Program-made: the position numbers and the translations under genes
DNA from: a virus
Lineage: Duplodnaviria; Caudoviricetes
Direction: 5' to 3' (one strand)
DNA: 64,000 bases
IMG/VR virus record: IMGVR_UViG_3300037851_000360
Span: 1 to 64,000 of that record
Shown: one piece after another, positions 987-61,888 of the stretch
Layout: the number at the start of each line of letters is the position of its first letter
How positions within the stretch are numbered: the stretch's first letter is position 1
The notes under the pieces: model-generated
What the model saw: the letters and a program-made list of their open reading frames with translations, nothing else
The model's database searches: none
What the model was told of the DNA's origin: nothing

Positions 987-1394
987 TTATTCTTTTAGTT
1001 GAAAACGTTTCAGGAACGGTGCCTCGCTTTTCGCGATGGGACCAATACCGACAGCGGTAGCCGTAGTCACGCCATTGAAACAGGTGTTATTGCCTGAATC
1101 TTCAATGAACGTACACGGCAAGCCCAAAGACTGAGCCTGATTGAACGCTTTGATTAGTGCTTCCAGATTCGAACACTCAAGACAAATCTTGGTGCCGATA
1201 CCGCCATCTGAGTGATATTCACTCTGTCTTTCCGGAGACGCTTTAAGAAACGCTCCAAGATAAGCATGACCAGCCTGCGAAGCCGTTTTGCCCGCACTCA
1301 TTCCTAAGTCGCTTCGTACGAGTGCGTAGATACGAAGTGTCTTATCAGGGATTACTCCCGGTTTTTCACTAGCCTATGTATGTTGTGTTTTCAT
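987..1394 (-). CDS. pth2: Peptidyl-tRNA hydrolase type 2 with in-frame amber codon (TAG at 1376-1374, codon 7)
   Basis: Pth2 motifs LRIYALVRSDLGMSAGKTASQAGHA, KICL, IEDSG and TAVGIGP. The conserved first beta-strand lies upstream of the ORF-track ATG (1301). The only canonical start upstream of that strand is the ATG at 1394: ATG AAA ACA CAA CAT ACA TAG GCT... Confidence 0.85.
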
Positions 1395-1528: not shown

Positions 1529-1924
1529 CTAATCGCCAGAAAATCCACTTGGCTTGCTGTAATATGCTGACATTTCCTTGGCATGGCTATCTGCCCACTG
1601 TTGAGCCTCAGCGCCTTTTGCAAGGGTTTTGAACTGTCCACCAAATTTGTAGCCGTATGGATCGCCCGGCTTGGTGTTTCTTTCCACAAACTTACGAACC
1701 ATTTCTTTCAATTCGGCTTCGTCTTTGGCGTAGAAGAGATGCTTGTCTCCAATGAAAACTGGCCCCTTATCGATTGGGCGCTTTACTTGAATGTCGGTGA
1801 TGTAAAATGGAATCTTTCCTTCACCCGGCACACCAAACAATTCATCATGCTCACGCTTGAAATCAGCCGTCATTTTTTCGACAATGATTTCACGAATGAT
1901 CTGTTTGAGTTCCGACTTTTTCAT
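1529..1924 (-). CDS. Hypothetical protein with capsid-targeting-like leader; ends in TAG
   Basis: 131-aa ORF; N-terminus MKKSELKQIIRE; amber stop at 1531-1529. Confidence 0.75.
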   Translation of the reverse strand: MKKSELKQIIREIIVEKMTADFKREHDELFGVPGEGKIPFYITDIQVKRPIDKGPVFIGDKHLFYAKDEAELKEMVRKFVERNTKPGDPYGYKFGGQFKTLAKGAEAQQWADSHAKEMSAYYSKPSGFSGD

Positions 1925-22600: not shown

Positions 22601-23365
22601 TTATTTTCCTTCCGTCACTTTGGAAACATTCTTCACAGCGCCTTTTAGGATATGCTCAATTGCATCGCGCTCTGCCTTGTATTCTGGTCCTTCCAAACGA
22701 AGAAGGATTGTGTGTAATAGTTTGTCTCCGACGCCCTTTTTCTTTCTCTCATAGTCGCGATACAAACGGAGGAATGCGTCTTGTATTTCGGCAGGAGGAA
22801 GAGCGTGAACTACGTCAAAGAATTGGTCGTATTGACCCTTCTGAAAATTTGCAATTGCATTGGTAAGTTCATCGGGCTGACCGCCTTTCAAATAGTGCTG
22901 AAGGTCGGCGAGCGACTTGACGTTGAAGGTTTCGTAAATCTTGGCAACCCGAGCGTCGCCAGATTCCTTCATGTTGTGAATCTTCCACATCGTTGCATAT
23001 GCCTTGTCATCCTGACCGGGATACTGACCTTTGATCTTATTGTAGAGATTCTTCGGAAAGTTTGGAGGGGCGACTTCGGCAAGTGTGTCATCCGTTGGAA
23101 CCGCAATTTTACTCGTGGCATTATCCATAGGAGCAATTGGTTTTCCATCCTTGTCGGTAATACCACCGTCTCTGTCAACCTTCACCACTTCACCCGCTTT
23201 GTTCTTCAACACGATAATGTCATTCTGCTCTCTGGCAATCGCAACGAATCCCTCTTTTACTTTTTGGGCAATCACTTCGTTTTGCTTTTCGTGTACTCCG
23301 TGTGCTTCTTTCATCACTTCGATGATAGATTCGCGGATGAGTTTCTTCAGGTCAAATTTCTTCAT
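22601..23365 (-). CDS. Hypothetical protein with capsid-targeting-like leader
   Basis: MKKFDLKKLIRE; internal TLAE-VAPP...KAYATMWK segment. Confidence 0.75.
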   Translation of the reverse strand: MKKFDLKKLIRESIIEVMKEAHGVHEKQNEVIAQKVKEGFVAIAREQNDIIVLKNKAGEVVKVDRDGGITDKDGKPIAPMDNATSKIAVPTDDTLAEVAPPNFPKNLYNKIKGQYPGQDDKAYATMWKIHNMKESGDARVAKIYETFNVKSLADLQHYLKGGQPDELTNAIANFQKGQYDQFFDVVHALPPAEIQDAFLRLYRDYERKKKGVGDKLLHTILLRLEGPEYKAERDAIEHILKGAVKNVSKVTEGK

Positions 23366-24036: not shown

Positions 24037-24726
24037 TCAAACCTTCTCGATGAAAACTTCGTACATGTCTTTCACCCCATAGCGGAGACCTGACGAACGG
24101 GCGTTGTTAAGATAACCATTCCTTTTTTCCTTGTCTTGGTATGCCCGAACGTCTCGCATGTGGTCTTTGGTCGTCTCGTGAAATACTTTACGAAGACACT
24201 TTTTATAGGTCTCCATGGAGGTTTTGACCCATGCGCCCTGCCTTGCCAGAACATCGCGCTCGTCAACGATTTCGACAAAGTGGTGCCAGATATCTCCGTC
24301 GTACGAAAAGGTTTTGGGCTTGATCTTCTTCATCAGAATCCAACGGGTAGGAACATCCCAGCCATCAACCTCGTCAGACGGCTTCAGGTCAACGCCGATT
24401 GACCAATACTTACCCGAATGCTTTTCGCACAATTCTGCATACTCGGGATGATTGCTGTCGATGATATTTCCATCCTTATCCCGAACGTAATTCATTCGGT
24501 TGATTTCACCCTCGTTCTTTTTTGGATTGATGAACTCATCACCACCCAATAGAAAGGGTTCCATGAGAGGCCACACAAACGAGTAAATCCCTCGGCGTGC
24601 GGGAGGAGCGTGGAAATTGTCTTTGTTCGGATCGTAACCCCGCTGGTTGACCGATGACAATCCACCATACCGCACGAACTTCAGTTTTCGTGCCGAAGAG
24701 AAATCAAACTTTCCTTTGTTAGCCAT
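24037..24726 (-). CDS. Hypothetical protein
   Basis: 229-aa ORF; TAATG overlap with the Nudix gene. Confidence 0.7.
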   Translation of the reverse strand: MANKGKFDFSSARKLKFVRYGGLSSVNQRGYDPNKDNFHAPPARRGIYSFVWPLMEPFLLGGDEFINPKKNEGEINRMNYVRDKDGNIIDSNHPEYAELCEKHSGKYWSIGVDLKPSDEVDGWDVPTRWILMKKIKPKTFSYDGDIWHHFVEIVDERDVLARQGAWVKTSMETYKKCLRKVFHETTKDHMRDVRAYQDKEKRNGYLNNARSSGLRYGVKDMYEVFIEKV

Positions 24727-25289
24727 TAGAAACCAAGGCGCATAACCATCGTGAACCAGATAGGGTCAACAACTTTCTTTCGAAGTTCTGCGGTGTCGGT
24801 CATCATTTCAAATTCTGCTTCTGTATCGTAAACGCTGCCGTCTCCTGTCTTCTCTCCCATTTTCAAATCCGTCACATCGACGGCGAAGAGGTGGTAAAGA
24901 GTGTCTGTTGACTTCGTTCCTCGGCAAGTTCCAAGAGATTTGAGGTCTTTCGTTTCGCAAATGTATCCCGTCTCTTCCTTCAATTCTTTCACAGCCATCT
25001 CTTCGGGTGATTCTCCCTTATCAACGCCACCGGTCACAGAACTGAATTCTGGCTTGAGACCCCACGAGGGAGTAACCTCCTTGCGCACCCCGTAAGACCA
25101 AGCATCGCGACCTTCACGACGATACGGAAGAACCGCGACGATGTTTCCATCACAGCGATTCTCGTGGGAGTAAACGTATTCTCCGTTCGGGGTATCCATC
25201 TTCATCAATGACAACCACTCCGTTCCTTTGAGAACGGTCGGCTTCTTTTCTTCGTGAAGATGCTTGAGAAGTGAACGGAGTTGAATCAT
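24726..25289 (-). CDS. Nudix hydrolase with capsid-targeting-like leader
   Basis: Nudix box GGVDKGESPEEMAVKELKEETG; start re-called to MIQLRSLLKHLHE (TGATG overlap). Confidence 0.88.
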   Translation of the reverse strand: MIQLRSLLKHLHEEKKPTVLKGTEWLSLMKMDTPNGEYVYSHENRCDGNIVAVLPYRREGRDAWSYGVRKEVTPSWGLKPEFSSVTGGVDKGESPEEMAVKELKEETGYICETKDLKSLGTCRGTKSTDTLYHLFAVDVTDLKMGEKTGDGSVYDTEAEFEMMTDTAELRKKVVDPIWFTMVMRLGF

Positions 25290-41296: not shown

Positions 41297-42409
41297 TTAC
41301 TTCTTCTTCATCTCCCTCATGATGGAACTGATTGATTCAATTGAGCGACCTTGTGTTCTTTGAGCGACACCGTTTCGCATGATTTCAGCAATGGAGTCTG
41401 GAACTACTTGTTTCTTAGGTGTCATTCCACGAATGATGGAAGCAATCTCATTGACGTTTACTTTGTCGTCTGGCAATTCTTCTGATCTGTTGATTCCGAG
41501 CATTTGTAGTCCTGAGTAATAGTTTGGGTTTTTCTTAATGTTGGCAATGGCGATCCTCTTGGATTCGTCTTTGTCTTGGTCGAATCGACGAGACATTTCG
41601 TATTTGATTCCGATGAACAATTCATCCGGATCAATACCGGGCTCTTTGAGGTCTTCTGGCTTGATCGAGTCATATGGTGCCCAACCCATCACCGTATTTC
41701 CGTTCATCGGTATTTCTCTCGATCCGAGAGTAGATGAACCAGCAAATTTGTTTGGATTCTGTCTTACACCGGGAGAAGCAAATGTTCCGAACGCACCCAA
41801 CGGAGCAACGGCACCACCGGCTGATCCATATCCACCGGAACTTCCACCATATTGACAGAACTCTTTCAAAACAGCCTTCTTCCAATCCTTGTCGCTATAG
41901 AGAATCTTGCTGAATGCAAGTTCCTTTCCTACGAATCTTTGATCCCCGACAAACTCATCTCCCTTACCTTTCTTTAGGTATGCGATGGTTACGTGAGGAT
42001 GATAGTCAGTGTATGAATTCTTCCAATTGACGTTATCCTTGATCAAGCCATTCAATTCATGAAGGTCTTCTGACTTGACTTCGATCTTGAGAACGTCGAA
42101 TTTCTCATTTCTGAATTTGGATACGACGCCGAGAGAAGCGGAGAGTGGAGTTTCAATCTGACCGATCAATTTCTTGACCTGATCCTTTCCGCCATTTTCA
42201 ACTCCATACAATACGGTGATGTGGGGATCATCTTCACGCCCCTTAATATCATCCTCTTCATCGACGTAAATGTAATCCTCGGGGATAGCCTTAATGAATT
42301 CCATCAACTCTGGAAAGTGTGGAACTCTAACCATTACAGTTTCCTCGAACCCTTCAGCACCCTCAGTCAAGAGAGCCTTCATCATTGATCTGTAGGTTAC
42401 GTCTTTCAT
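41297..42409 (-). CDS. 2H phosphoesterase (T4 gp57B/Acb1-like family) fused to a degenerate DUF5661-like domain
   Basis: Two HxT motifs: PHITVLYG and YHPHVTIAY; C-terminal ELFIGIKYEM...IAIANIKKNPNYYS. Confidence 0.8.
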   Translation of the reverse strand: MKDVTYRSMMKALLTEGAEGFEETVMVRVPHFPELMEFIKAIPEDYIYVDEEDDIKGREDDPHITVLYGVENGGKDQVKKLIGQIETPLSASLGVVSKFRNEKFDVLKIEVKSEDLHELNGLIKDNVNWKNSYTDYHPHVTIAYLKKGKGDEFVGDQRFVGKELAFSKILYSDKDWKKAVLKEFCQYGGSSGGYGSAGGAVAPLGAFGTFASPGVRQNPNKFAGSSTLGSREIPMNGNTVMGWAPYDSIKPEDLKEPGIDPDELFIGIKYEMSRRFDQDKDESKRIAIANIKKNPNYYSGLQMLGINRSEELPDDKVNVNEIASIIRGMTPKKQVVPDSIAEIMRNGVAQRTQGRSIESISSIMREMKKK

Positions 42410-48954: not shown

Positions 48955-48963
48955 ATATTTATA
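48955..48963 (+). promoter_or_regulatory. Putative late promoter motif ATATTTATA
   Basis: 4 nt from the ATG of the giant gene. Confidence 0.6.
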
Positions 48964-48967
48964 GAAG

Positions 48968-51900
48968 ATGAACGAGTTGACGAAACATTTGGTTGAGGGA
49001 GTGATTAACGAAATCGCAATGGCACCTATCCCGGTGTTCATATATTCCGGTCATTTTCAACCACCGCATTTGGGAAACAAGTGGGTCTGGGACTGGCTCG
49101 CAAAGACAAGAGGAGCGGACAAATGCTTCATTGCGACTCCAAGTGATGCTTCACCACTGACCTTTGCCGAAAAGAAATCGGTATTCGCAGCGATGGGAAT
49201 GGATTCATCAAAGGTCAACCAATCCATCGGTTTGTTTAGAGCGCCATCCATCACTGAAAAGTTCGACGTGAACAAGTATGCATTCGTTTATGTTGTGAAT
49301 GAAGTTGATGCCGGAAACGTTCCCCCTCGCTTCAAGCCATACAAAGATAAGATGGTGATCACACCACACATCCTTGGCGAATCATACTACATGGTCGTTC
49401 CGAAGGAAGCATTCACCGTTGGAGGAATCACAATTGACGACGAAAAGGTTATCAAGTTCCTCGGCTCACCAAAGATGGATTACAAAACCTCAATGGAGGC
49501 ATTCCACAAGTTCTTCGGATTCTTCGATGAGCACATGTTCAATGTTCTCGTGAAGAAGTTTGAGAAAACCGTTAAGGAAGACATTACCCCAATAGTTCAG
49601 ACAACGGAGCAATCGTCAAGCCTTTCACCTCAATTCAAGGCACCGACACTAAGCGTTTCTGAGAGAGCCTCTCTTGCTGAAAGAATGGGAGTCGAACAAT
49701 CGTGGGTAGATGAACTTTTGACAGAAGACCCCGATGGCGTTGATGATGGAGATGAGGTGCATCCTTGGGATAGCCGTCAGGCATACCCATTCTTTTTGAT
49801 TGACGACTTTTTGTTGGTCGGAAGACCAGCATCCACACACAGAAGTTTGATCAAGGCTCTGAACTTCACTCCAGACGACCTCCACCGATTCACTCGACCG
49901 AATAATACCGACTCAGCGTTTTACGTTGAAAAGTTGAAAAGCATTCTTCAAAACAATTTGGATTATCTTGAGATGGATGATCCCGACGATGAGTTTAACG
50001 GGGCGTATGAACGAGACGAAGCATCAATGAAATTCGTTGCCGGAAGATTGTGGAAAAACGAACAGATAATATCGTTTTGGTCTCCAAAATCCCTCGTGGT
50101 GAAAAATTGGGAAACTCTGAAAAAAGCAGTGTCAAAATTTCATTCGTTTGGCAACCTCGACGACTATAGAATTGACTGGATTGAAAGAGATTCAAGCGAG
50201 CCTATGACCGATGGTTCGTCAATATCATCAACTTCATCCAATACGAAAGACGACTTGTCTCCAGAAGAATACAAGAAGTTGCTATCAAAGCAGCATCTTG
50301 ACCCAAACGCCAAGAAAGTATTGGCAAAGATGGCAGAACATCCAAACAAAGCCGCTGAAATCGCCGATAAACTTGGTATGTCTGTGGCAGAACTCAATCA
50401 CTTGATTGGTGTTGTGGCAGAAGGAGCGACGGCACAAATCTTGAAAGAAGACCCGGATGAAGTTGTCGATGAAGATGGAACGGCAATCGCATATTTGGAG
50501 GAGAATGACACAAGAGCATTCTTCTTCTTTGACGACGTTGCCATTTTCTCCATTCCCGGTGGTCGCCACGAGGAACTATTCAACACCATCAAAAGAGTTG
50601 CCGAAGTCGGGCGGTTCGACCGTGTTGACCTTGAAAGAATGGTCATTGCTGATGGAAAGCCAAACAAAGCAGACTTGGTTCGAGTAGTTCGTGCATTCAC
50701 AAAATACAAGAGTCAGATTTTCAGTGGTTCTGGAAGAAACATTGCCGGTGTTCTGGTTGGTAGAGTGTGGACAGAAAAGAAACTCATGTCGTTCTGGACA
50801 CTGAAGAGGGTTGCCATCAAGAGTTGGGATAACGTCGAGAAGATTTTCCAACAGTTTCCAAACCTTCTAGGAAACCGTCATGAATACAGAATCGACTGGC
50901 TCGAACGTGCATACAAGAAGCCGATTCCTCCATTGACAAGATTTGACAATGCACGTGATGGAGCACCAGAGGAGAAGATCACCCCCGAGAAGTTGAAAGA
51001 CCTTCTATCCAAGCAACACCTTGACCCAAAGGCAAAGGAAATCTTAAAGAAGGTTCAGGGTCTTCCTCCCAACAAGGCAGCACACCTCGCCACATTGCTT
51101 GGATTCAACAGCCCGGCAGAAATGTTCTATCACCACGGGCACGACGGAAGCGGTGGAACTCAAAAGATAAATGAAGACCCCGGAGAGGTTTACGAGAAGA
51201 ACAAAGAGATTCTCAACTACACCGCCGAGGATGCAGTTATTTTCATCACACTTGAAGACGGAACGATCTTTGGCGGAAACGGAATGCTTCACGAAGAACT
51301 TTATCACAGCATTCTCAGTTACATTTTCAAGCGAGAATGGAAGTATGTGGAAAATGATGGATATTTCTCCGATCAAAAGAAAGTGGAACGTTATCTAATC
51401 ATCAAAGGAAAATACCTCGCAGATCATGACAAGATTCAAGATGATGGTCGATCACCATATAAGGGTTTGGCGGGAAGAATTTGGACAGACAAGAGAGTAA
51501 TTTCATTCTGGCAAACTCCGGAAGAAACTCGTCCACACTGGAAGAAGATTGAAGAAGCGTTTGCTCGCGATCCTCAACCCTGCCGCCAAAAGGATGGTTC
51601 GACAAAGAACAGCCAACCACTTCACCTAGGAAAACTTGAAGAATACCGTCTCGACTTCGTTGATAGTGGCGGAAATGCTGACGGATTGATTCCAGTTCAA
51701 AGTTTCCTATCAGGTGAGATGAAAAAGAGCCGCCTATCCCCCGAGGAATACAAAGAACTTCTCGCAAAACAGCACCTTGATCCAGAGGCAAAGAAAAAAC
51801 TTGCCGCCGATCTTGAAGGTGGTCCTTATAACAAGGCTGCTGAATTGGCAAAGAAACTTGGCTACGACTCTGTTGCTCAGATGAACGCTGACATTCACAC

Positions 51901-54900
51901 AAATCTCGACGAGAAGAAACTCACGGAGAGCCCCGATGTTGTACGCGACGTTGCACGTGAAGATGATGCTGAGATGCCAAGAGATTTGGCTACATACGGA
52001 GATGCTGACGCCACCACGTTTGTTGCATTTGAAAACTTCGACATCACCACGGGAATGTATCACTATCACATTTTCAAGGCACTCCAAGAATTTGACAGAA
52101 TGGGAAATTGGAAATACGCCGATGGAAACTACATGGATTTTGATAAAGAGGCTGCTGCGGAATACATTCGCAGCGATCTTCCAGAAGAATTTGACGGGTC
52201 TGATGTGAATGAGGGTCGAGAATTCCCACACGCTCTTGCGGGGCGTCTCTGGACCAATAAGAAAATCATATCATTCTGGCATCATCAATCCGAAGTTCAA
52301 CACTACTGGAATAATGTGGTGGAAATGTTCCAGAGACACACCGAGTTTGGTTCGTTGGATGATTACCAGATCGATTGGTTGGAACGGTCGGAGGATTTGA
52401 CTCTTCCGCTAACCAAGGCAAGTACGTCAGCCAAGCCGAACATAGAAAAGAAAACTAACTCTTCTGTGGATAAATTGGATGCCGTCAAGAAGGCTATGCA
52501 CGTTATGGACCCGGGTGCGAAGGGTCAACTCATGAAAATGCTCCAAGGTGCAAGCCCAAACAAAAAGCAAGAGATTGCCGACAAACTTGGAATTTCCGTG
52601 GCACAACTCAATGCTATGGATCGCATGGATGAAGCAGTCAATTCTCCAGACAAGCCGGTAATCGCAATTTACTCGGGAAGATTCCAACCATTCCACATCA
52701 ACCACTACAAGGCATATCAGGAAATGGTCAAGGAGTTCGGTAAGGATAACGTATTCATCGTCACCAGCGATAAGACGGAACCCGGCACCAGCCCATTCGA
52801 TTTCAAGCAGAAGTCGCAAATCATGACTCGTGTGTTCGGTATTCCACAGAGACAAATTGTGGAAGCACTTCACATGAATGGCGACAAGCCAAACCGTGGT
52901 CCATACTTCACCATCGACAAGACGGCAGGAAAGTTGAGCGATTGGATGAAGGAAATCGCGAAGCGTATGGGAATGAACCCCGACAATCCACCCCCATTCG
53001 GTCTCGTCATCGGATTTGGTGGCAAGGATGAAGCCAGAAGCAGAATCGCCAAATCTGAATACTCTCCCGGAAAGCCCGTTCCAAATTTCATGCCCGAAGG
53101 AAACGTCATGTCGTTTACCATTCCAATGCAGGATGTGAATTTCAAGGGACACGTCATCAATGGAACCATGGTTCGAGAAATCATCACGAAGCATCCCGAG
53201 ATGGCTGATATGCTATTCAAGATTCTCTATCCACAGGGAATCGATCCACAGACAAAGGCTATGATCGTTTCCACGATCCAGTCGTCAATTGCACCAGAGC
53301 CAAAGGTAAAGAAGAAAAAACTTGAAGAAGGAGTTCAGTTCGGATTCATTAAGCACATCGAAGACATGTCTCCAGAAGAACTCTTGAATTTTTTCAAGTT
53401 GTGGAATGCGGATCAAACGAAATTTGAGACGTTCGAGAAGGTAGACGGAAACTTCTATCGATTTGGATTGAGCGTTGGAAAGTTCTACGTCAAAGATTCC
53501 AAGCAGGCTTATAACAAACCCGAAGAATATCCAGAGCCATACTTCTACGATGACTTCCGTCGATTCCATGCGGAATTGCAAAAGATCGATTGGTCTCTCA
53601 TCTTGAAAGAAGTTGGAGCATACGACAATCTGAACTTCGAAGCCGACAGTGAAGCCGTTCCACACGCTCACCACAATCAGGTTGAGTACAATGGAAAGAT
53701 CATCGGTGAAGGAATCGTTGTCATCTTTGGATTGACAATGGATGGATCGAAGACCGACTACAACACTATTGTCAAGTTCTGCAAGAAGGCAAACGAGCAC
53801 AGCCCAAAGATCAAATTCCACGCTGTTCCAAAGGTTGACCTTTCCAAGATCAAGTTCGACACATCCACGGTCGAGACTCTGGAATCTCTCATCACCAAGC
53901 ACGGAAACTTCCTCAAGAAGCCTGCTAGAAAGCCAGAAGACAAAGCCCTCAAGCAAAAGATTCTCGGTTTGATCCATGACATTGCTGTTAAGGCAAAGAA
54001 TCGCGTGTTTTCCACAAACATCAAGTCGGCATTCGGTCAAGACTATGAAGGAATGGTCGTTCACCTTCCCGGTGGAGGTATGGTCAAGTTCGTTGACAAA
54101 GACAAGTTCACAAAGTCGAAGGATGAAAGTTGGAAGGTCATCTCCGACATGGATTCCGTTCTCAAGCCAATTCGCGACGATATGAAGAAAGGTGTCGCTG
54201 ACGGGATGATGCAGAGATTGCAATCCGCCAAGACACAAATCACCACAATCTACAACGCCTTCAAGAAGAATCCCGAATCGGTAAAGAGCGAAAAGAAGCG
54301 TGAGGATACTCACAAGCACTATGACCTTCTCATGAAACAGATTGACAAGGCATTGGCTTCTCTTCAGCAGGGTCAACCTGTAACCCAACTGCGCGAAAGC
54401 GGAAAGGCAGTCGGTGAGGTCAACCCAATCCCAAGAAGTTACCTTGAAAAAACCGTTGAGCACGCTCTCAACATTTGGGGATTCAAGGGAACCCCATACG
54501 AACTTCTTGGAAACATCAACAAGGATATCCTCGGAGATATTGACGTTGGAATCGATTACCCACATGTAGAAAAAGTCGTAGGTGCTGCGCCCGACTCTCC
54601 CGATTTCTGGCAGAAGGTTGAAGAATACTTCAGCAAGCAGTCGAGTAAGGTTCAAGGTCGCGAACCGAAATACAAGATCATGAAGGGTCTCGAAATCGTT
54701 TCCGTTCTTTCCTTTGCCGTTGATGAAACTGGCAAGGTTCATCCCGAACTACCAGTTCAGGTTGACATTGCATTCGGCGACATGAAATTCATGAAAGCCG
54801 GTCGCAGCGGAGCACCAAAGGATAGCAAATACAAGGCTCTCCACAGAAACATTCTCCTTGCTGATATCCTCTCGACTATCTACCACGAGCAGGTAGACGA

Positions 54901-55204
54901 CAAGACCCGTCGCCGTTATCAAATCAATATTTCCAAAGGCGTGCAGACTGCGGATTTGATTAAAGGACCAAGAGGCGGCGAAAAGAAAGCCAATGTCAAG
55001 ACCATCATCAACGACCCCGACAAGATGGCAGAACTTCTTTTCGGCCCGGGAATGAAGTGGGAAGACATGAACAGTTTCGAGAAGTTATACAAACTCCTCG
55101 TCGGTCCAAAATTCCGCTACAAAGACAAAGTTAAAGAAATCGTCGATAAGTTCAAAGACTCCATGAAACGTATGGAGCGTGATGTTCCTTCGGAACTTGC
55201 GTAA
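48968..55204 (+). CDS. Giant multidomain protein (2078 aa): HxGH-type nucleotidyltransferase, 4 x unknown repeat domain, second HxGH domain, KxDG ligase-like domain, Pol-beta-like NTase
   Basis: YSGHFQPPHLGN; YSGRFQPFHINH; IKHIED...FEKVDG; LGNINKDILGDIDVGID...VQVDIAF. Confidence 0.8.
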   Translation: MNELTKHLVEGVINEIAMAPIPVFIYSGHFQPPHLGNKWVWDWLAKTRGADKCFIATPSDASPLTFAEKKSVFAAMGMDSSKVNQSIGLFRAPSITEKFDVNKYAFVYVVNEVDAGNVPPRFKPYKDKMVITPHILGESYYMVVPKEAFTVGGITIDDEKVIKFLGSPKMDYKTSMEAFHKFFGFFDEHMFNVLVKKFEKTVKEDITPIVQTTEQSSSLSPQFKAPTLSVSERASLAERMGVEQSWVDELLTEDPDGVDDGDEVHPWDSRQAYPFFLIDDFLLVGRPASTHRSLIKALNFTPDDLHRFTRPNNTDSAFYVEKLKSILQNNLDYLEMDDPDDEFNGAYERDEASMKFVAGRLWKNEQIISFWSPKSLVVKNWETLKKAVSKFHSFGNLDDYRIDWIERDSSEPMTDGSSISSTSSNTKDDLSPEEYKKLLSKQHLDPNAKKVLAKMAEHPNKAAEIADKLGMSVAELNHLIGVVAEGATAQILKEDPDEVVDEDGTAIAYLEENDTRAFFFFDDVAIFSIPGGRHEELFNTIKRVAEVGRFDRVDLERMVIADGKPNKADLVRVVRAFTKYKSQIFSGSGRNIAGVLVGRVWTEKKLMSFWTLKRVAIKSWDNVEKIFQQFPNLLGNRHEYRIDWLERAYKKPIPPLTRFDNARDGAPEEKITPEKLKDLLSKQHLDPKAKEILKKVQGLPPNKAAHLATLLGFNSPAEMFYHHGHDGSGGTQKINEDPGEVYEKNKEILNYTAEDAVIFITLEDGTIFGGNGMLHEELYHSILSYIFKREWKYVENDGYFSDQKKVERYLIIKGKYLADHDKIQDDGRSPYKGLAGRIWTDKRVISFWQTPEETRPHWKKIEEAFARDPQPCRQKDGSTKNSQPLHLGKLEEYRLDFVDSGGNADGLIPVQSFLSGEMKKSRLSPEEYKELLAKQHLDPEAKKKLAADLEGGPYNKAAELAKKLGYDSVAQMNADIHTNLDEKKLTESPDVVRDVAREDDAEMPRDLATYGDADATTFVAFENFDITTGMYHYHIFKALQEFDRMGNWKYADGNYMDFDKEAAAEYIRSDLPEEFDGSDVNEGREFPHALAGRLWTNKKIISFWHHQSEVQHYWNNVVEMFQRHTEFGSLDDYQIDWLERSEDLTLPLTKASTSAKPNIEKKTNSSVDKLDAVKKAMHVMDPGAKGQLMKMLQGASPNKKQEIADKLGISVAQLNAMDRMDEAVNSPDKPVIAIYSGRFQPFHINHYKAYQEMVKEFGKDNVFIVTSDKTEPGTSPFDFKQKSQIMTRVFGIPQRQIVEALHMNGDKPNRGPYFTIDKTAGKLSDWMKEIAKRMGMNPDNPPPFGLVIGFGGKDEARSRIAKSEYSPGKPVPNFMPEGNVMSFTIPMQDVNFKGHVINGTMVREIITKHPEMADMLFKILYPQGIDPQTKAMIVSTIQSSIAPEPKVKKKKLEEGVQFGFIKHIEDMSPEELLNFFKLWNADQTKFETFEKVDGNFYRFGLSVGKFYVKDSKQAYNKPEEYPEPYFYDDFRRFHAELQKIDWSLILKEVGAYDNLNFEADSEAVPHAHHNQVEYNGKIIGEGIVVIFGLTMDGSKTDYNTIVKFCKKANEHSPKIKFHAVPKVDLSKIKFDTSTVETLESLITKHGNFLKKPARKPEDKALKQKILGLIHDIAVKAKNRVFSTNIKSAFGQDYEGMVVHLPGGGMVKFVDKDKFTKSKDESWKVISDMDSVLKPIRDDMKKGVADGMMQRLQSAKTQITTIYNAFKKNPESVKSEKKREDTHKHYDLLMKQIDKALASLQQGQPVTQLRESGKAVGEVNPIPRSYLEKTVEHALNIWGFKGTPYELLGNINKDILGDIDVGIDYPHVEKVVGAAPDSPDFWQKVEEYFSKQSSKVQGREPKYKIMKGLEIVSVLSFAVDETGKVHPELPVQVDIAFGDMKFMKAGRSGAPKDSKYKALHRNILLADILSTIYHEQVDDKTRRRYQINISKGVQTADLIKGPRGGEKKANVKTIINDPDKMAELLFGPGMKWEDMNSFEKLYKLLVGPKFRYKDKVKEIVDKFKDSMKRMERDVPSELA
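49727..52633 (+). repeat. Four tandem ~240-aa domain repeats within the giant protein
   Basis: Units start at aa 254, 495, 737 and 988; shared GR[LVI]W...SFW, G.L..Y.[IL]D[WF], H..DP.AK, NK..[EH].A..LG. Confidence 0.85.
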
Positions 55205-59474: not shown

Positions 59475-60374
59475 ATGAGTCTACCGACACCAAAGAAGCT
59501 AAAACACAGTAAGTTCAAGAACACGGGCATCCTCTTTGAACTTTTAGTTCGTCAAGTGACTTCTGACATCATTTCGAACAAACCTTCCCTCGCGAATCCC
59601 ATCCTCCAGAAGTTTTTCAACGAGGCAACTGAATTGGGCAAGGAGTGGAAATTGTACCAACTCATCACCGAAGAAAAGGTGAAGTCACAGGAGCAAGCCG
59701 AGAAGTTTTTGGAAGTGATCATCAACACTCGTAAAAAGATCAACGAATCCAAACTATCCGCGCAGAAGTTTGAGTTGGTGAAGGAAATCAAGGCTCATTG
59801 GGATTTGGAAAAGTTCATGGCTTCGCCCGTAAGCAACTACAAACTTTTTGCATCCACGTTCAAACTATTCGAAGAGGCAACTCATCCCGAAATCATCGTT
59901 GAGGCAAAGGAATTGTATCAAGCCAAGTCGTTTATCACGGAGCACATGTCAACCAAGTCCGCTCCTAAGACCGACCTCGGCGACTACAATAAGTCGGAAT
60001 TGATCGAAATGTATAGAAAGCAAACCGAAGAAATGCGTTTGCTCTCTTACAAACTTCTCATCGACAACTTCAACAAAAAGTATTCCAACCTCGACACCGA
60101 GCAGAAGAACCTTCTTCGCGAATACATCAACAACGTAAGCAACACTCAGAGCCTACGTGAATATGTTGATAAGGAAGTTGAGAGAGTTAAGAAGAAACTT
60201 CAGGAATTGGCAAAGACCATCAACGATGACGTTATCGTGATCAAGTTGAATGAAGCACTTGCACAACTATCCAAGTTGAACGAAGGCAGATTGGTAAAGG
60301 ATAATCATATCACCGCCCTCTTGATCGGCTACGAACTGATCAAGGAGATTAAGAAAACCACAGGAAAAGAGTAA
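59475..60374 (+). CDS. Head-module hypothetical protein (helical)
   Basis: 299-aa ORF between portal and protease. Confidence 0.75.
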   Translation: MSLPTPKKLKHSKFKNTGILFELLVRQVTSDIISNKPSLANPILQKFFNEATELGKEWKLYQLITEEKVKSQEQAEKFLEVIINTRKKINESKLSAQKFELVKEIKAHWDLEKFMASPVSNYKLFASTFKLFEEATHPEIIVEAKELYQAKSFITEHMSTKSAPKTDLGDYNKSELIEMYRKQTEEMRLLSYKLLIDNFNKKYSNLDTEQKNLLREYINNVSNTQSLREYVDKEVERVKKKLQELAKTINDDVIVIKLNEALAQLSKLNEGRLVKDNHITALLIGYELIKEIKKTTGKE

Positions 60375-60832
60375 TGGATAAGAACGGTCTCAACAAGTTA
60401 ATCGCGGAGGTTTTGAAGGATATTCAAACCGAGATGACCACAACTGGAGCCGTCGCTGGTTACCAGACTCCAAACGCATTTTCTGCAAACAAGAAGAGCA
60501 AGGGCAATAAGAAAGCCGCTGCCGCTACTTCGGGTTACACTCCTGTAAAGGAAGAAGAAGACCCTGAAGTATTGAGTGAAGCACGTGGTCGATATTTCAA
60601 CTTTCGCGAAAGCGAAGAATTCAGACACCCAAGTAGCAAGGTATCATTTTGCATTCGTGAGATGAAGAAGATGCTTGGTGAAGTGGAGTTCCTCGTCAAA
60701 ATCGGAAAGCGTCTCAAGACCGAGGCTGGCGTGTCAAATGACATGCTCTGGAAAAGAACCGAACATGACGTTCAGGCGATTAACGAACGCCTCAGAAACC
60801 TCGCCCGTGGAATTAAGGAAATGACCAGATGA
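60374..60832 (+). CDS. Putative prohead core protein
   Basis: LxE leader; TE-MTTTGAVAGYQTPNAF segment; synteny. Confidence 0.6.
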   Translation: MDKNGLNKLIAEVLKDIQTEMTTTGAVAGYQTPNAFSANKKSKGNKKAAAATSGYTPVKEEEDPEVLSEARGRYFNFRESEEFRHPSSKVSFCIREMKKMLGEVEFLVKIGKRLKTEAGVSNDMLWKRTEHDVQAINERLRNLARGIKEMTR

Positions 60833-61278
60833 ATACAAAACTAACCTCCTTGCTACAAGAAATTTTTAACGGCTCAAAACTCGCCGAAGTGGGTGGTGTT
60901 GTATCAACCCCACCTGTAGGTCAAGTTGCAAAGAAACCTGCCACCCCAACTACAGCACCAGCAACAGAGCCAGCAACTCCTGCACCAGCCGCGCCCGCCG
61001 CTGCGCAGGTTTACAATCCAGCGGTCGAAATGCAATCGTTCGAATCTGAAATCGCCAAGTCGATTGAAATTCACGAAAAGAACATCAAGGCACGCCTTCT
61101 CAACAAGACCGTCACCGCCCGCGCATCAAAGGGATATGGTCAGGTTGAAAAGGATTACACATTCGTAGTAGTTTCCGCATCAATCGTTCTTTTCAAGGAA
61201 GACTATCACCTAGTACTTCGCGACAAAGAGAAGAAGGAATATTACGTCAACACCAACACAAAGATCAAGGTAAGTTAA
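60829..61278 (+). CDS. Putative prohead core protein
   Basis: MNTKLTSLLQE leader; Pro/Ala linker; synteny. Confidence 0.6.
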   Translation: MNTKLTSLLQEIFNGSKLAEVGGVVSTPPVGQVAKKPATPTTAPATEPATPAPAAPAAAQVYNPAVEMQSFESEIAKSIEIHEKNIKARLLNKTVTARASKGYGQVEKDYTFVVVSASIVLFKEDYHLVLRDKEKKEYYVNTNTKIKVS

Positions 61279-61279
61279 C

Positions 61280-61888
61280 ATGAAGATACCTCTAAACAAT
61301 GTTATTCCATTCGAAATCTCGCCTCGCGTTCTTCAAGAAGTTCGCGAGAACGTATCTGGCCCAGTAACCGTCGAAGGTATCCTACAGAAAGCAAACGAAC
61401 AGAATCAAAATGGTCGTCGCTATCCAAAGCCAATTCTCGAAAGAGAAATCATGAACTACCAAAAGAACTTCGTCAATGAACGTCGTGCTCTTGGAGAACT
61501 CGACCACCCAAATTCGGGTGTAATCAACCTCAAGAACGTATCCCACAACATCGTGGAATGCCATTGGGAAGGCGACAACGTAGTTGGAACCATCGAAATT
61601 TTGACCACGCCCGCTGGAAACATTCTTCGCGAACTCATCAAGAACAACATTCGTCTTGGTATCAGTTCTCGTGGTATGGGTTCCGTTAAGGAACTTCGCG
61701 AAGGTGGTGTTGAGGTACAGGACGACTTCGAACTTCTTTGCTTTGACTTCGTATCCAACCCATCCACCCGTGGCGCATTCATGCAGCCACAATCGCTCAA
61801 TGAAGGTCTTGAAAAGACACTTGAAGCAGTTTCCAAGTACGGAAAAGTCGAAGGATTGATCTACGACCTTCTCTCGGAGATGAAATAA
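61280..61888 (+). CDS. Prohead maturation protease (T4 gp21-like)
   Basis: NQNGRRYP, ALGELDHP, LGISSRGMGS, DFVSNPST. Confidence 0.95.
   Translation: MKIPLNNVIPFEISPRVLQEVRENVSGPVTVEGILQKANEQNQNGRRYPKPILEREIMNYQKNFVNERRALGELDHPNSGVINLKNVSHNIVECHWEGDNVVGTIEILTTPAGNILRELIKNNIRLGISSRGMGSVKELREGGVEVQDDFELLCFDFVSNPSTRGAFMQPQSLNEGLEKTLEAVSKYGKVEGLIYDLLSEMK

Follow-up and report, generated by a model that had tools for sequence, protein, structure and literature searches.

Why would a tailed phage (Duplodnaviria; Caudoviricetes) string a whole series of enzyme-like modules into one chain of 2078 residues, and keep the gene for this chain next to its terminase and portal genes? The question is raised by the open reading frame (ORF) at 48968..55204 on the plus strand of the DNA analyzed here, the first 64 kb (hereafter the window) of an 88-kb viral contig from IMG/VR (IMGVR_UViG_3300037851_000360; completeness 43% according to CheckV). 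An earlier reading of this DNA (hereafter the sequence-only reading) had interpreted the 236-kDa product as a polyprotein cut by the prohead protease after the Glu of hydrophobic-x-Glu (h-x-E) triplets. Our analysis leads us to regard the giant protein as probably a capsid-loaded polyprotein, processed by the head protease, that would deliver an RNA repair kit. That the ORF is a real gene follows from its colinearity with P0002, from a cytidylyltransferase-like Pfam match, and from the AlphaFold2 (AF2) model of the C-terminal 624 residues (aa 1455-2078), which fold with a mean predicted local distance difference test score (pLDDT) of 94. P0002, a metagenomic protein of 1818 aa, is the sole close full-length homologue (54% identity by BLAST, 64% in the alignment); it lacks one of four internal repeats (repeat 2), with nothing else missing. 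With the whole giant protein as the query, the related-locus search of IMG/VR returned no relative, and tblastn against 50,697 phage records matched only its nucleotidyltransferase (NTase) part, in two records.

The domain architecture is that of a leader followed by eight modules, all on the plus strand. The leader (MNELTKHLVEGVINE, aa 1-15, 48968..49012) is a candidate capsid-targeting sequence and holds LVE10 and INE15. Module 1 (aa 16-253, 49013..49726, 26.8 kDa, ending in LLTE) aligns with the HIGH NTase family as a degenerate member. It is followed by four copies of a ~240-aa domain with a helix-turn-helix (HTH)-like tail: repeat 1 (aa 254-494, 49727..50449, ending in ILKE), repeat 2 (aa 495-736, 50450..51175, ending in KINE), repeat 3 (aa 737-987, 51176..51928, ending in KLTE) and repeat 4 (aa 988-1222, 51929..52633, ending in RMDE). 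The C-terminal part comprises an intact HIGH NTase (module 6, aa 1223-1454, 52634..53329, 26.1 kDa, ending in KLEE), an RNA-ligase-type adenylyltransferase with a helical C-terminal part (module 7, aa 1455-1810, 53330..54397, 40.9 kDa, ending in QLRE), and a minimal family-X (Pol-beta-fold) NTase (module 8, aa 1811-2078, 54398..55201, 30.3 kDa). The eight [LIM]-x-E sites, INE13-15, LTE251-253, LKE492-494, INE734-736, LTE985-987, MDE1220-1222, LEE1452-1454 and LRE1808-1810, are all found at the residues given in the sequence-only reading.

Over the whole giant protein [LIM]xE is not enriched (27 occurrences versus 24 expected from composition), and the question is therefore one of placement. 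To locate the seven internal domain starts independently of the motif, we relied on where stand-alone or leaderless homologues begin. All seven have a [LIM]xE triplet ending 1-8 residues upstream, directly adjacent in five cases, while in 20,000 composition-preserving shuffles no more than five of the seven starts were ever preceded by the triplet and none reached seven; with the four repeats counted as a single boundary the placement remains significant (p = 0.0003). Thus, the triplet is enriched at the boundaries against background, a comparison that the sequence-only reading had proposed. In P0002, the only full-length homologue in which conservation could be followed, all seven joints present retain [LIMV]xE, each with at least one changed residue (INE to LNE, LTE to LKE, LKE to IKE, LTE to VKE, MDE to IDE, LEE to LME, LRE to ITE), versus 10 of 17 non-joint [LIM]xE sites. 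We also considered the joints as copies of one conserved linker cassette and rejected this explanation, since the sequences before each LxE differ. In the AF2 model of aa 1455-2078, the sole long coil is one of 20 residues (model positions 347-366) with a pLDDT minimum of 70, and it holds LRE1808-1810; the segment's three other LxE triplets belong to helices or tightly folded parts. LKE494 is situated where the HTH-like tail of repeat 1 passes into the first strand of repeat 2, a region modelled with a pLDDT below 50. Both joints for which structures were predicted are thus placed in linkers.

The motif has a well-characterized precedent in T4, where the capsid-targeting sequence (CTS) MKTYQEFIAE is removed by the protease gp21 and proteins fused to it become packaged (PMC8442874, PMC3012670, PMC5694885). 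A gp21-type prohead serine protease is indeed encoded in the window, at 61280..61888 on the plus strand, as the sequence-only reading had claimed: the product matches Pfam Peptidase_S77 (PF03420) with 102 bits against a cut-off of 27, and phrog_207 with E 1e-54. The Gp23-family capsid protein of the same phage reads KQLIE/E (here and below a slash marks the junction) about 30 residues before the conserved VSVQPM. By eye, we take this junction to correspond to the maturation site of T4 gp23.

Comparison with other phages reveals that each of the four module families has members encoded by genes of their own, and that among these the ones with a leader have h-x-E exactly at the position of the polyprotein joint. 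A HMMER scan with aa 1455-2078 identified 293 relatives, in which the ligase and PolX (Pol X-like) domains are fused to each other, fused behind a HIGH NTase, or found alone; at one locus (L095) they are encoded by adjacent separate genes. In the PolX family 82 members were aligned from domain position 1, which was set by six proteins beginning with M-GGN or M-SGN. Directly before the GGN start, 57 of them have [LIM]xE, 9 have [VFAY]xE and 6 have other sequences (72 with upstream sequence altogether), and the remaining 10 are leaderless. Because these ten homologues begin directly with M-GGN or M-SGN, the PolX h-x-E triplet is not part of the fold. The leaders of stand-alone PolX proteins are short and T4-like (MKTFKEYLIE/GGG, MITFKQFIQE/GGN, MVSFKQFLLE/GGN, MKNPLKELIKELIREIIVE/GGN), and those from IMG/VR include MIKLKDILLE/GGN. 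Of five long IMG/VR records in which PolX homologues bear leaders, four encode Peptidase_S77, and the fifth is a fragment with 43% completeness.

A similar pattern is seen in the other three families. The stand-alone repeat homologue P0008, whose gene neighbors gp2, gp19 and baseplate genes on a T4-like contig, starts with MKTFKEFLAE/DPDG, identical to the T4 CTS at 7 of 10 positions. Two others, P0005 and P0007, have leaders of about 20 residues ending in ILQE/NPDG and ILDE/SPDE, respectively, so that in all three proteins [DNS]PD comes right after the leader; in 16 longer proteins with two to five repeats, [LI]xE stands before nearly every full repeat start. In fused ligases LxE is found 0-8 aa ahead of the domain (IDE/GIKHIEDL, LNE/GIKHIEDL, LEE/GVQFGFIKHIEDM). 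Homologues of the HIGH NTase either carry a leader that ends in h-x-E, e.g. MNPLVKFLIESFITE or MNNLTDFLVRRFLDE, or start at the first strand. To judge by these alignments, in four unrelated families the residue that follows the polyprotein h-x-E is the first residue of the domain, and in three of them the fold demonstrably does without the triplet. Four checks proposed by the sequence-only reading, on separate homologous genes, on boundary enrichment, on the position of joints in predicted structures and on conservation of the sites, thus all turned out in its favor.

The leader of the giant protein is itself conserved: it is retained both in P0002 and in the syntenic protein P0003, which is otherwise unlike it and begins with MSELSKFLVEQIISE. 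Within this genome, 10 of 85 ORFs have the pattern h-[KT]-x-h-h-x-E among their first 22 residues, versus 0.43 expected. ORFs with the strict pattern include small ones in the vicinity of the protease gene; a Nudix protein and a 2H phosphoesterase bear looser variants. Judging by these N-termini, the load of the phage probably comprises a whole series of enzymes. Further ORFs with leaders ending in h-x-E, e.g. MKKSELKQIIREIIVE, MKKFDLKKLIRESIIE and MKVQALKSIIKEIIRE, include the Nudix protein, the 2H phosphoesterase (which is also weakly Acb1-like) and a GP88-family protein; they are located at 1529-1924(-), 22601-23365(-), 24726-25289(-), 41297-42409(-), 60374-61278(+) and 62345-64120(+) of the window, and at 68361-69548(+) of the 88-kb record.

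What the modules could do once separated is best indicated for the last three. Module 6 corresponds to the second HxGH domain of the sequence-only reading and is intact, with HINH at 1243-1246 and INGTMVR at 1397-1403. It matches Pfam CTP_transf_like with 27.7 bits (cut-off 21), and also phrog_395. Its nearest solved sequences are nicotinic acid mononucleotide (NaMN) and nicotinamide mononucleotide (NMN) adenylyltransferases, with weak E-values (best PDB match a NaMN adenylyltransferase, E 0.008). Module 7, for which a KxDG ligase/capping-type domain had been proposed, contains FEKVDG at 1488-1494 (EKVDGN 1490-1495) and proves to have the fold of nick-sealing RNA ligases. Its motifs, read by eye, are KVDG 1491-1494, EGMVV 1694-1698 and VKFVDK 1706-1711, which represent motif I with its lysine nucleophile and motifs IV and V of ATP-dependent RNA ligases, and all are conserved in P0002. 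VIA-align matches its model (pLDDT 94) to the Naegleria RNA ligase NgrRnl (6vt9, Z 12.2, root-mean-square deviation (rmsd) 3.9 with 190 residues aligned), REL1 of T. brucei (Z 11.4) and T4 Rnl2 (2hvq, Z 11.3), and the top Foldseek match is also T4 Rnl2 (2hvr, E 2e-5). The Pfam RNA_ligase family PF09414 has no match in the giant protein, and the stand-alone homologue P0029 reaches 26.3 bits against a cut-off of 27; since this is below the gathering score, we refer to module 7 as ligase-like and not as a member of PF09414.

Module 8 bears GDIDVG at 1856-1861 and VQVD at 1930-1933, in agreement with the Pol-beta-type NTase of the sequence-only reading, and adopts a Pol X-type fold. GN 1848-1849, DID 1857-1859 (with the pair D1857 and D1859) and the third carboxylate D1933 are invariant in the family alignment A6. 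The VIA-align matches have moderate Z scores (pol lambda 1rzt, Z 9.7, rmsd 4.2, 171 residues aligned; African swine fever virus (ASFV) PolX 5hrg, Z 9.1, 159 of 177 residues aligned), and Foldseek found pol beta. With its 268 aa the module aligns from the palm to the C-terminus in the manner of the minimal ASFV enzyme, without the 8-kDa deoxyribose phosphate (dRP)-lyase or BRCT domains of cellular Pol X. The possibility that module 8 is RlaP (PF10127) was considered and rejected, as there is no Pfam match and hhalign of A6 against the RlaP of this very genome gave a probability of 0.1. In the PDB, sequence searches with modules 7 and 8 had no match below E 0.3; PHROGs contains no family for the PolX module and one marginal match (phrog_2154, E 0.0055) for the ligase homologue P0029; and tblastn of the PolX module against the 50,697 phage records found nothing. 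Unannotated PolX-like homologues are present in all 15 Prevotella Lak megaphage records of the collection, with 29-34% identity to P0139 (e.g. MK250024.1, 528381-529187).

The N-terminal half of the chain is more enigmatic. Where the sequence-only reading assumed a first HxGH domain, module 1 in fact reads H-L-G-N in place of HxxH and ITIDDEKV in place of SGTxxR. An active HxGH enzyme was rejected on these grounds, and this degenerate copy is probably inactive, as far as its motifs can tell. It shares 25% identity over 275 aa with the N-terminal domain of P0003. The four repeat domains perceived earlier are confirmed as ~240-aa copies with 31-35% mutual identity and a beta-rich core with conserved GRxW, SFW and YxxD. 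The repeat has no match in Pfam or PHROGs, scores at most 0.81 in the protein atlas, and as a profile matches only designed helical repeats in the PDB. Its AF2 model has a pLDDT of 65.7, and the best structural match (Z 4.3) covers only the helical tail; a search of BFVD with the model gave nothing below E 0.1, and tblastn against the same phage records gave nothing either. The four diverged repeats with HTH-like tails would be further cargo, and the repeat is a widespread ~240-aa domain and, if our interpretation is right, a probable injected cargo. Repeat-family genes of other phages (L006, L009, L098, L099), with one to five copies, share a conserved neighborhood a few kb upstream of DUF2201_N and PhoH.

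The genomic setting of the gene is that of a head gene cluster. The distance from the giant gene to the start of terL, estimated earlier as about 700 nt, is 715 nt; the order on the 3' side is a 212-aa ORF, terL, a T4-type portal gene, three small ORFs, the Peptidase_S77 gene and further small core-like ORFs. The 212-aa ORF has no family match and is, by its position, a putative small terminase gene (terS). Just past the end of the window there are a scaffold-like protein and the Gp23-family capsid protein (262 bits). The scaffold-like protein, acidic and 433 aa long (64251-65552(+) of the 88-kb record, L097:152-1453), gave no match in Pfam; it has about 20 LxE sites and three copies of a ~35-aa repeat (LTE/TEKSWEDAKAPGAAKTEDPQGAS), and it looks like a gp22 analogue built for shredding by the protease. 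By portal sequence, the nearest cultured phages are Microcystis phage Mel-JY01 (56%) and the Flavobacterium immuto phages (51%). Besides the enzymes with leaders (Nudix, 2H phosphoesterase), the genome encodes tRNA genes, a PTH2-type peptidyl-tRNA hydrolase (window 987-1301(-), 53.7 bits) and a separate RlaP, i.e. an RNA-ligase-associated Pol-beta NTase (PF10127, 46.5 bits; 74102-74863(-) of the 88-kb record, L096:103-864).

A promoter-like motif, TATTTATA (extended ATATTTATAG), is located at 48956..48963 on the plus strand and ends 4 nt before the ATG of the giant gene, exactly where a late motif had been noticed earlier. There are 14 copies of TATTTATA in the window versus 0.48 expected. The 88-kb record has 15, all oriented with the genes, of which 14 stand 3-30 nt upstream of a start codon. 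The giant gene, which adjoins the terminase/portal region, has ATATTTATAG upstream in common with the portal gene and other structural genes. Copies of ATATTTATAG span 11216-63685 of the window (14 copies), with another at 75268-75275 of the 88-kb record; in gene orientation the motif is the reverse complement of the TATAAATA of T4. Several copies end only 3-6 nt from the ATG, so that there is no space for a ribosome-binding site, which suggests that ATATTTATAG may be a late promoter that yields leaderless or near-leaderless mRNAs.

The locus upstream of terL varies between related phages. In a related phage, represented by a 22-kb Logan contig, the corresponding position ahead of terL and portal is taken by the above-mentioned P0003 (2445 aa). 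This protein resembles the giant protein in its leader and N-terminal NTase, but its other enzymes differ: a CCA-adding enzyme, an HD domain and, at the C-terminus, a KLDG ligase-like part. Mel-JY01 encodes a 640-aa fusion of NTase and ligase (L003:6244-8163), in which the joint reads IIAE/GGLGGHMNHPFD (IIAE/GG). In Flavobacterium phage vB_FspM_immuto_3-5A a 907-aa protein annotated as NMN adenylyltransferase (L005:7088-9811) starts with a leaderless PolX-like domain (MSGVAGGN and GDLD), followed by TLAE/A, a HIGH NTase and two HExxH motifs. Judging by this domain order, it is a shuffled relative with features of polyvalent proteins, in a cultured phage.

Taking these results together, we propose the following mechanism. 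The 236-kDa precursor would be expressed late, along with the head genes, and its 15-residue leader would anchor it in the prohead's scaffolding core, the role that the CTS has for the internal proteins in T4. Once activated, which for gp21-type enzymes may require assembly of the prohead, the Peptidase_S77 protease encoded at 61280 would cut after the Glu of exposed h-x-E triplets, i.e. at the leader and at the seven inter-module linkers, and the eight products of 26-41 kDa would be retained in the head and exit with the DNA into the cell. There, the trio of HIGH NTase, ligase-type and Pol X-type enzymes most likely restores and reseals broken RNA, which may be, e.g., tRNA cut by host anticodon nucleases. 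Pre-loading would be sensible in this case, because a phage cannot translate its repair enzymes once the host has cut the tRNAs. The trio recurs in many phages, either fused or as neighboring genes. By analogy with systems in which Pol X is paired with a ligase, it might instead repair nicked or gapped nucleic acid duplexes, which we consider less likely. Among the functions offered by the sequence-only reading, repair of RNA or nucleic-acid ends is the best supported. Resynthesis of NAD is only a possibility, a role of module 6 in NAD synthesis being one option. Since the 88-kb record has no KptA/Tpt1 gene, a link of ligase, 2'-phosphotransferase and NAD is not supported, and for interference with nucleotide signalling we found no evidence.

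Several observations weigh against the cargo interpretation. The leader of the giant protein resembles the T4 CTS only loosely, and a 236-kDa precursor exceeds, to our knowledge, any core protein of T4. As there is a single close full-length homologue, the conservation of the sites rests mostly on distant families, and these are not uniform: leaderless PolX genes are also present in T4-like contigs, and stand-alone ligase homologues start with M-GIKHIEDL, mostly without a leader, so that the ligase enzyme is not generally cargo. No leaderless form was found among the repeat-family proteins, and hence h-x-E could belong to the repeat domain. The folds cannot discriminate between RNA and DNA substrates. 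Together with the absence of an overall excess of LxE, the leaderless ligases would agree with an uncut multi-enzyme acting in the cytoplasm, e.g. a late RNA-repair factory, in which the h-x-E triplets are relics of leaders from before the fusion or simply a favored linker chemistry. Many phage RNA-repair enzymes are indeed cytoplasmic, and ligase-PolX fusions of ~650 aa without an N-terminal leader exist (P0009, P0024). We nevertheless regard this explanation as unlikely: relic leaders would decay in the absence of selection, but all seven joints retain the motif class in spite of the drift of their residues, and the N-terminal leader is conserved across two architectures. The modelled joints are found in flexible linkers, and the gene stands among head genes, with which it has the upstream motif in common.

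Two further explanations accept packaging and differ from our proposal in the fate of the chain. It may be that only the leader is trimmed and the chain remains essentially intact, to act as a polyvalent protein after injection, like DarB of P1 or the virion RNA polymerase of N4. In T4 proteins, LxE triplets in the interior often escape cleavage. Large uncut virion proteins do exist, and the N4 virion RNA polymerase is packaged unprocessed (PMC5512222), but the internal joints of the giant protein obey the same rule as the leaders of its stand-alone relatives and are exposed in the models, and we give this explanation a somewhat smaller chance than the cytoplasmic one. The least probable of the three, in our opinion, is a component of the core or scaffold that serves to fill or size the core, is cut up and is mostly expelled, so that its fragments are not injected effectors. 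Precedents are T4 gp22, gp67 and gp68, which are cut at several sites and exit the head (PMC5694885), and the neighboring scaffold-like ORF 64251-65552 is rich in LxE; however, modules 6-8 are well folded with intact catalytic motifs, the fragments of 26-41 kDa match or exceed the size of the internal proteins retained by T4, and the same enzymes are ordinary genes in other phages. A packaged and fully processed polyprotein thus remains the explanation that we favor.

How does such a protein relate to known systems? The T4 internal proteins IPI, IPII, IPIII and Alt are similar in their short leader ending in hydrophobic-x-Glu, in the Peptidase_S77 protease, the T4-type portal and the capsid protein, and in varying their cargo while keeping the leader; for two of the modules, stand-alone relatives even have leaders nearly identical to MKTYQEFIAE. 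The T4 CTS and the processing of internal proteins by gp21 were reportedly described by Mullaney and Black in 1996. In contrast to the giant protein, the T4 cargo consists of single modules that are cut once (Alt at both ends), whereas here one leader precedes eight modules, with a predicted cut site at each joint and repair enzymes among the putative products. Polyvalent proteins of phages and conjugative elements (Iyer, Burroughs, Anand, de Souza and Aravind 2017; PMC5512222) carry two to fifteen effector domains per polypeptide in the context of virion genes. They are comparable in that eight modules in one chain adjoin terminase/portal genes, are predicted to be packaged and delivered early, and are shuffled between phages. 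Their hallmarks, however, are fusions to MuF or portal and embedded metallopeptidases, neither of which was detected in the giant protein by Pfam at E up to 1 (its four repeats are without an assignable fold), and PMC5512222 describes no joint like the regular head-protease h-x-E joint seen here.

With phage RNA repair systems, in which RNA ligases act with Pol-beta-fold NTases that restore lost nucleotides (PMC7824862; PMC9503650), the giant protein shares the combination of an RNA-ligase fold and a Pol-beta-fold NTase, fused or adjacent. The association of Rnl2-type, nick-sealing ligases with RlaP and CCA-adding enzymes is credited in PMC7824862 to Burroughs and Aravind 2016. The recurring trio of modules 6-8 fits this scheme, as do the RlaP, 2H phosphoesterase, PTH2 and tRNA genes of the genome analyzed here, and the syntenic P0003 bears a CCA-adding enzyme and an HD domain instead. 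The differences are that module 8 is not RlaP but resembles a minimal family-X enzyme, and that the known modules are ordinary cytoplasmic products and not presumed capsid cargo. In African swine fever virus, a eukaryotic DNA virus, Pol X and DNA ligase perform DNA base-excision repair. The likeness lies in a minimal family-X polymerase of similar size paired with a ligase (the 5hrg match), but the partner ligase in the giant protein has the RNA-ligase fold. Thus, the individual elements, from the T4 CTS and the specificity of gp21 to phage RNA-repair modules and polyvalent virion proteins as a concept, are already known, and in the literature searched we found no multi-enzyme chain described that is loaded by a single leader and bears a head-protease site at each of its joints.

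If our interpretation is true, head-protease processing would extend beyond the trimming of scaffold and internal proteins, and a tailed phage would use a polyprotein strategy like that of eukaryotic viruses, in which the cutting of the polyprotein sets the enzymes present in the first seconds of infection. There is perhaps an even chance that h-x-E-jointed polyproteins represent a general loading system of T4-like phages, with one leader, a chain of unrelated enzymes, and the head protease to separate them. The four module families all occur both behind leaders and in fusions, and three of them (ligase-like, Pol X and HIGH NTase) are also found leaderless; from this we infer that travel in the virion could be switched by the gain or loss of about 10 codons or by fusion. 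For uncultured T4-like phages this provides a sequence rule for virion cargo, namely a domain that begins right after a leader or joint ending in hydrophobic-x-Glu, provided that the genome encodes Peptidase_S77. The results further suggest that a phage can bring along the means to repair cut tRNA or damaged nucleic acid, available before any phage translation; if so, a capsid-carried repair kit would solve the problem of a phage that can no longer translate such enzymes after the host has cut its tRNAs.

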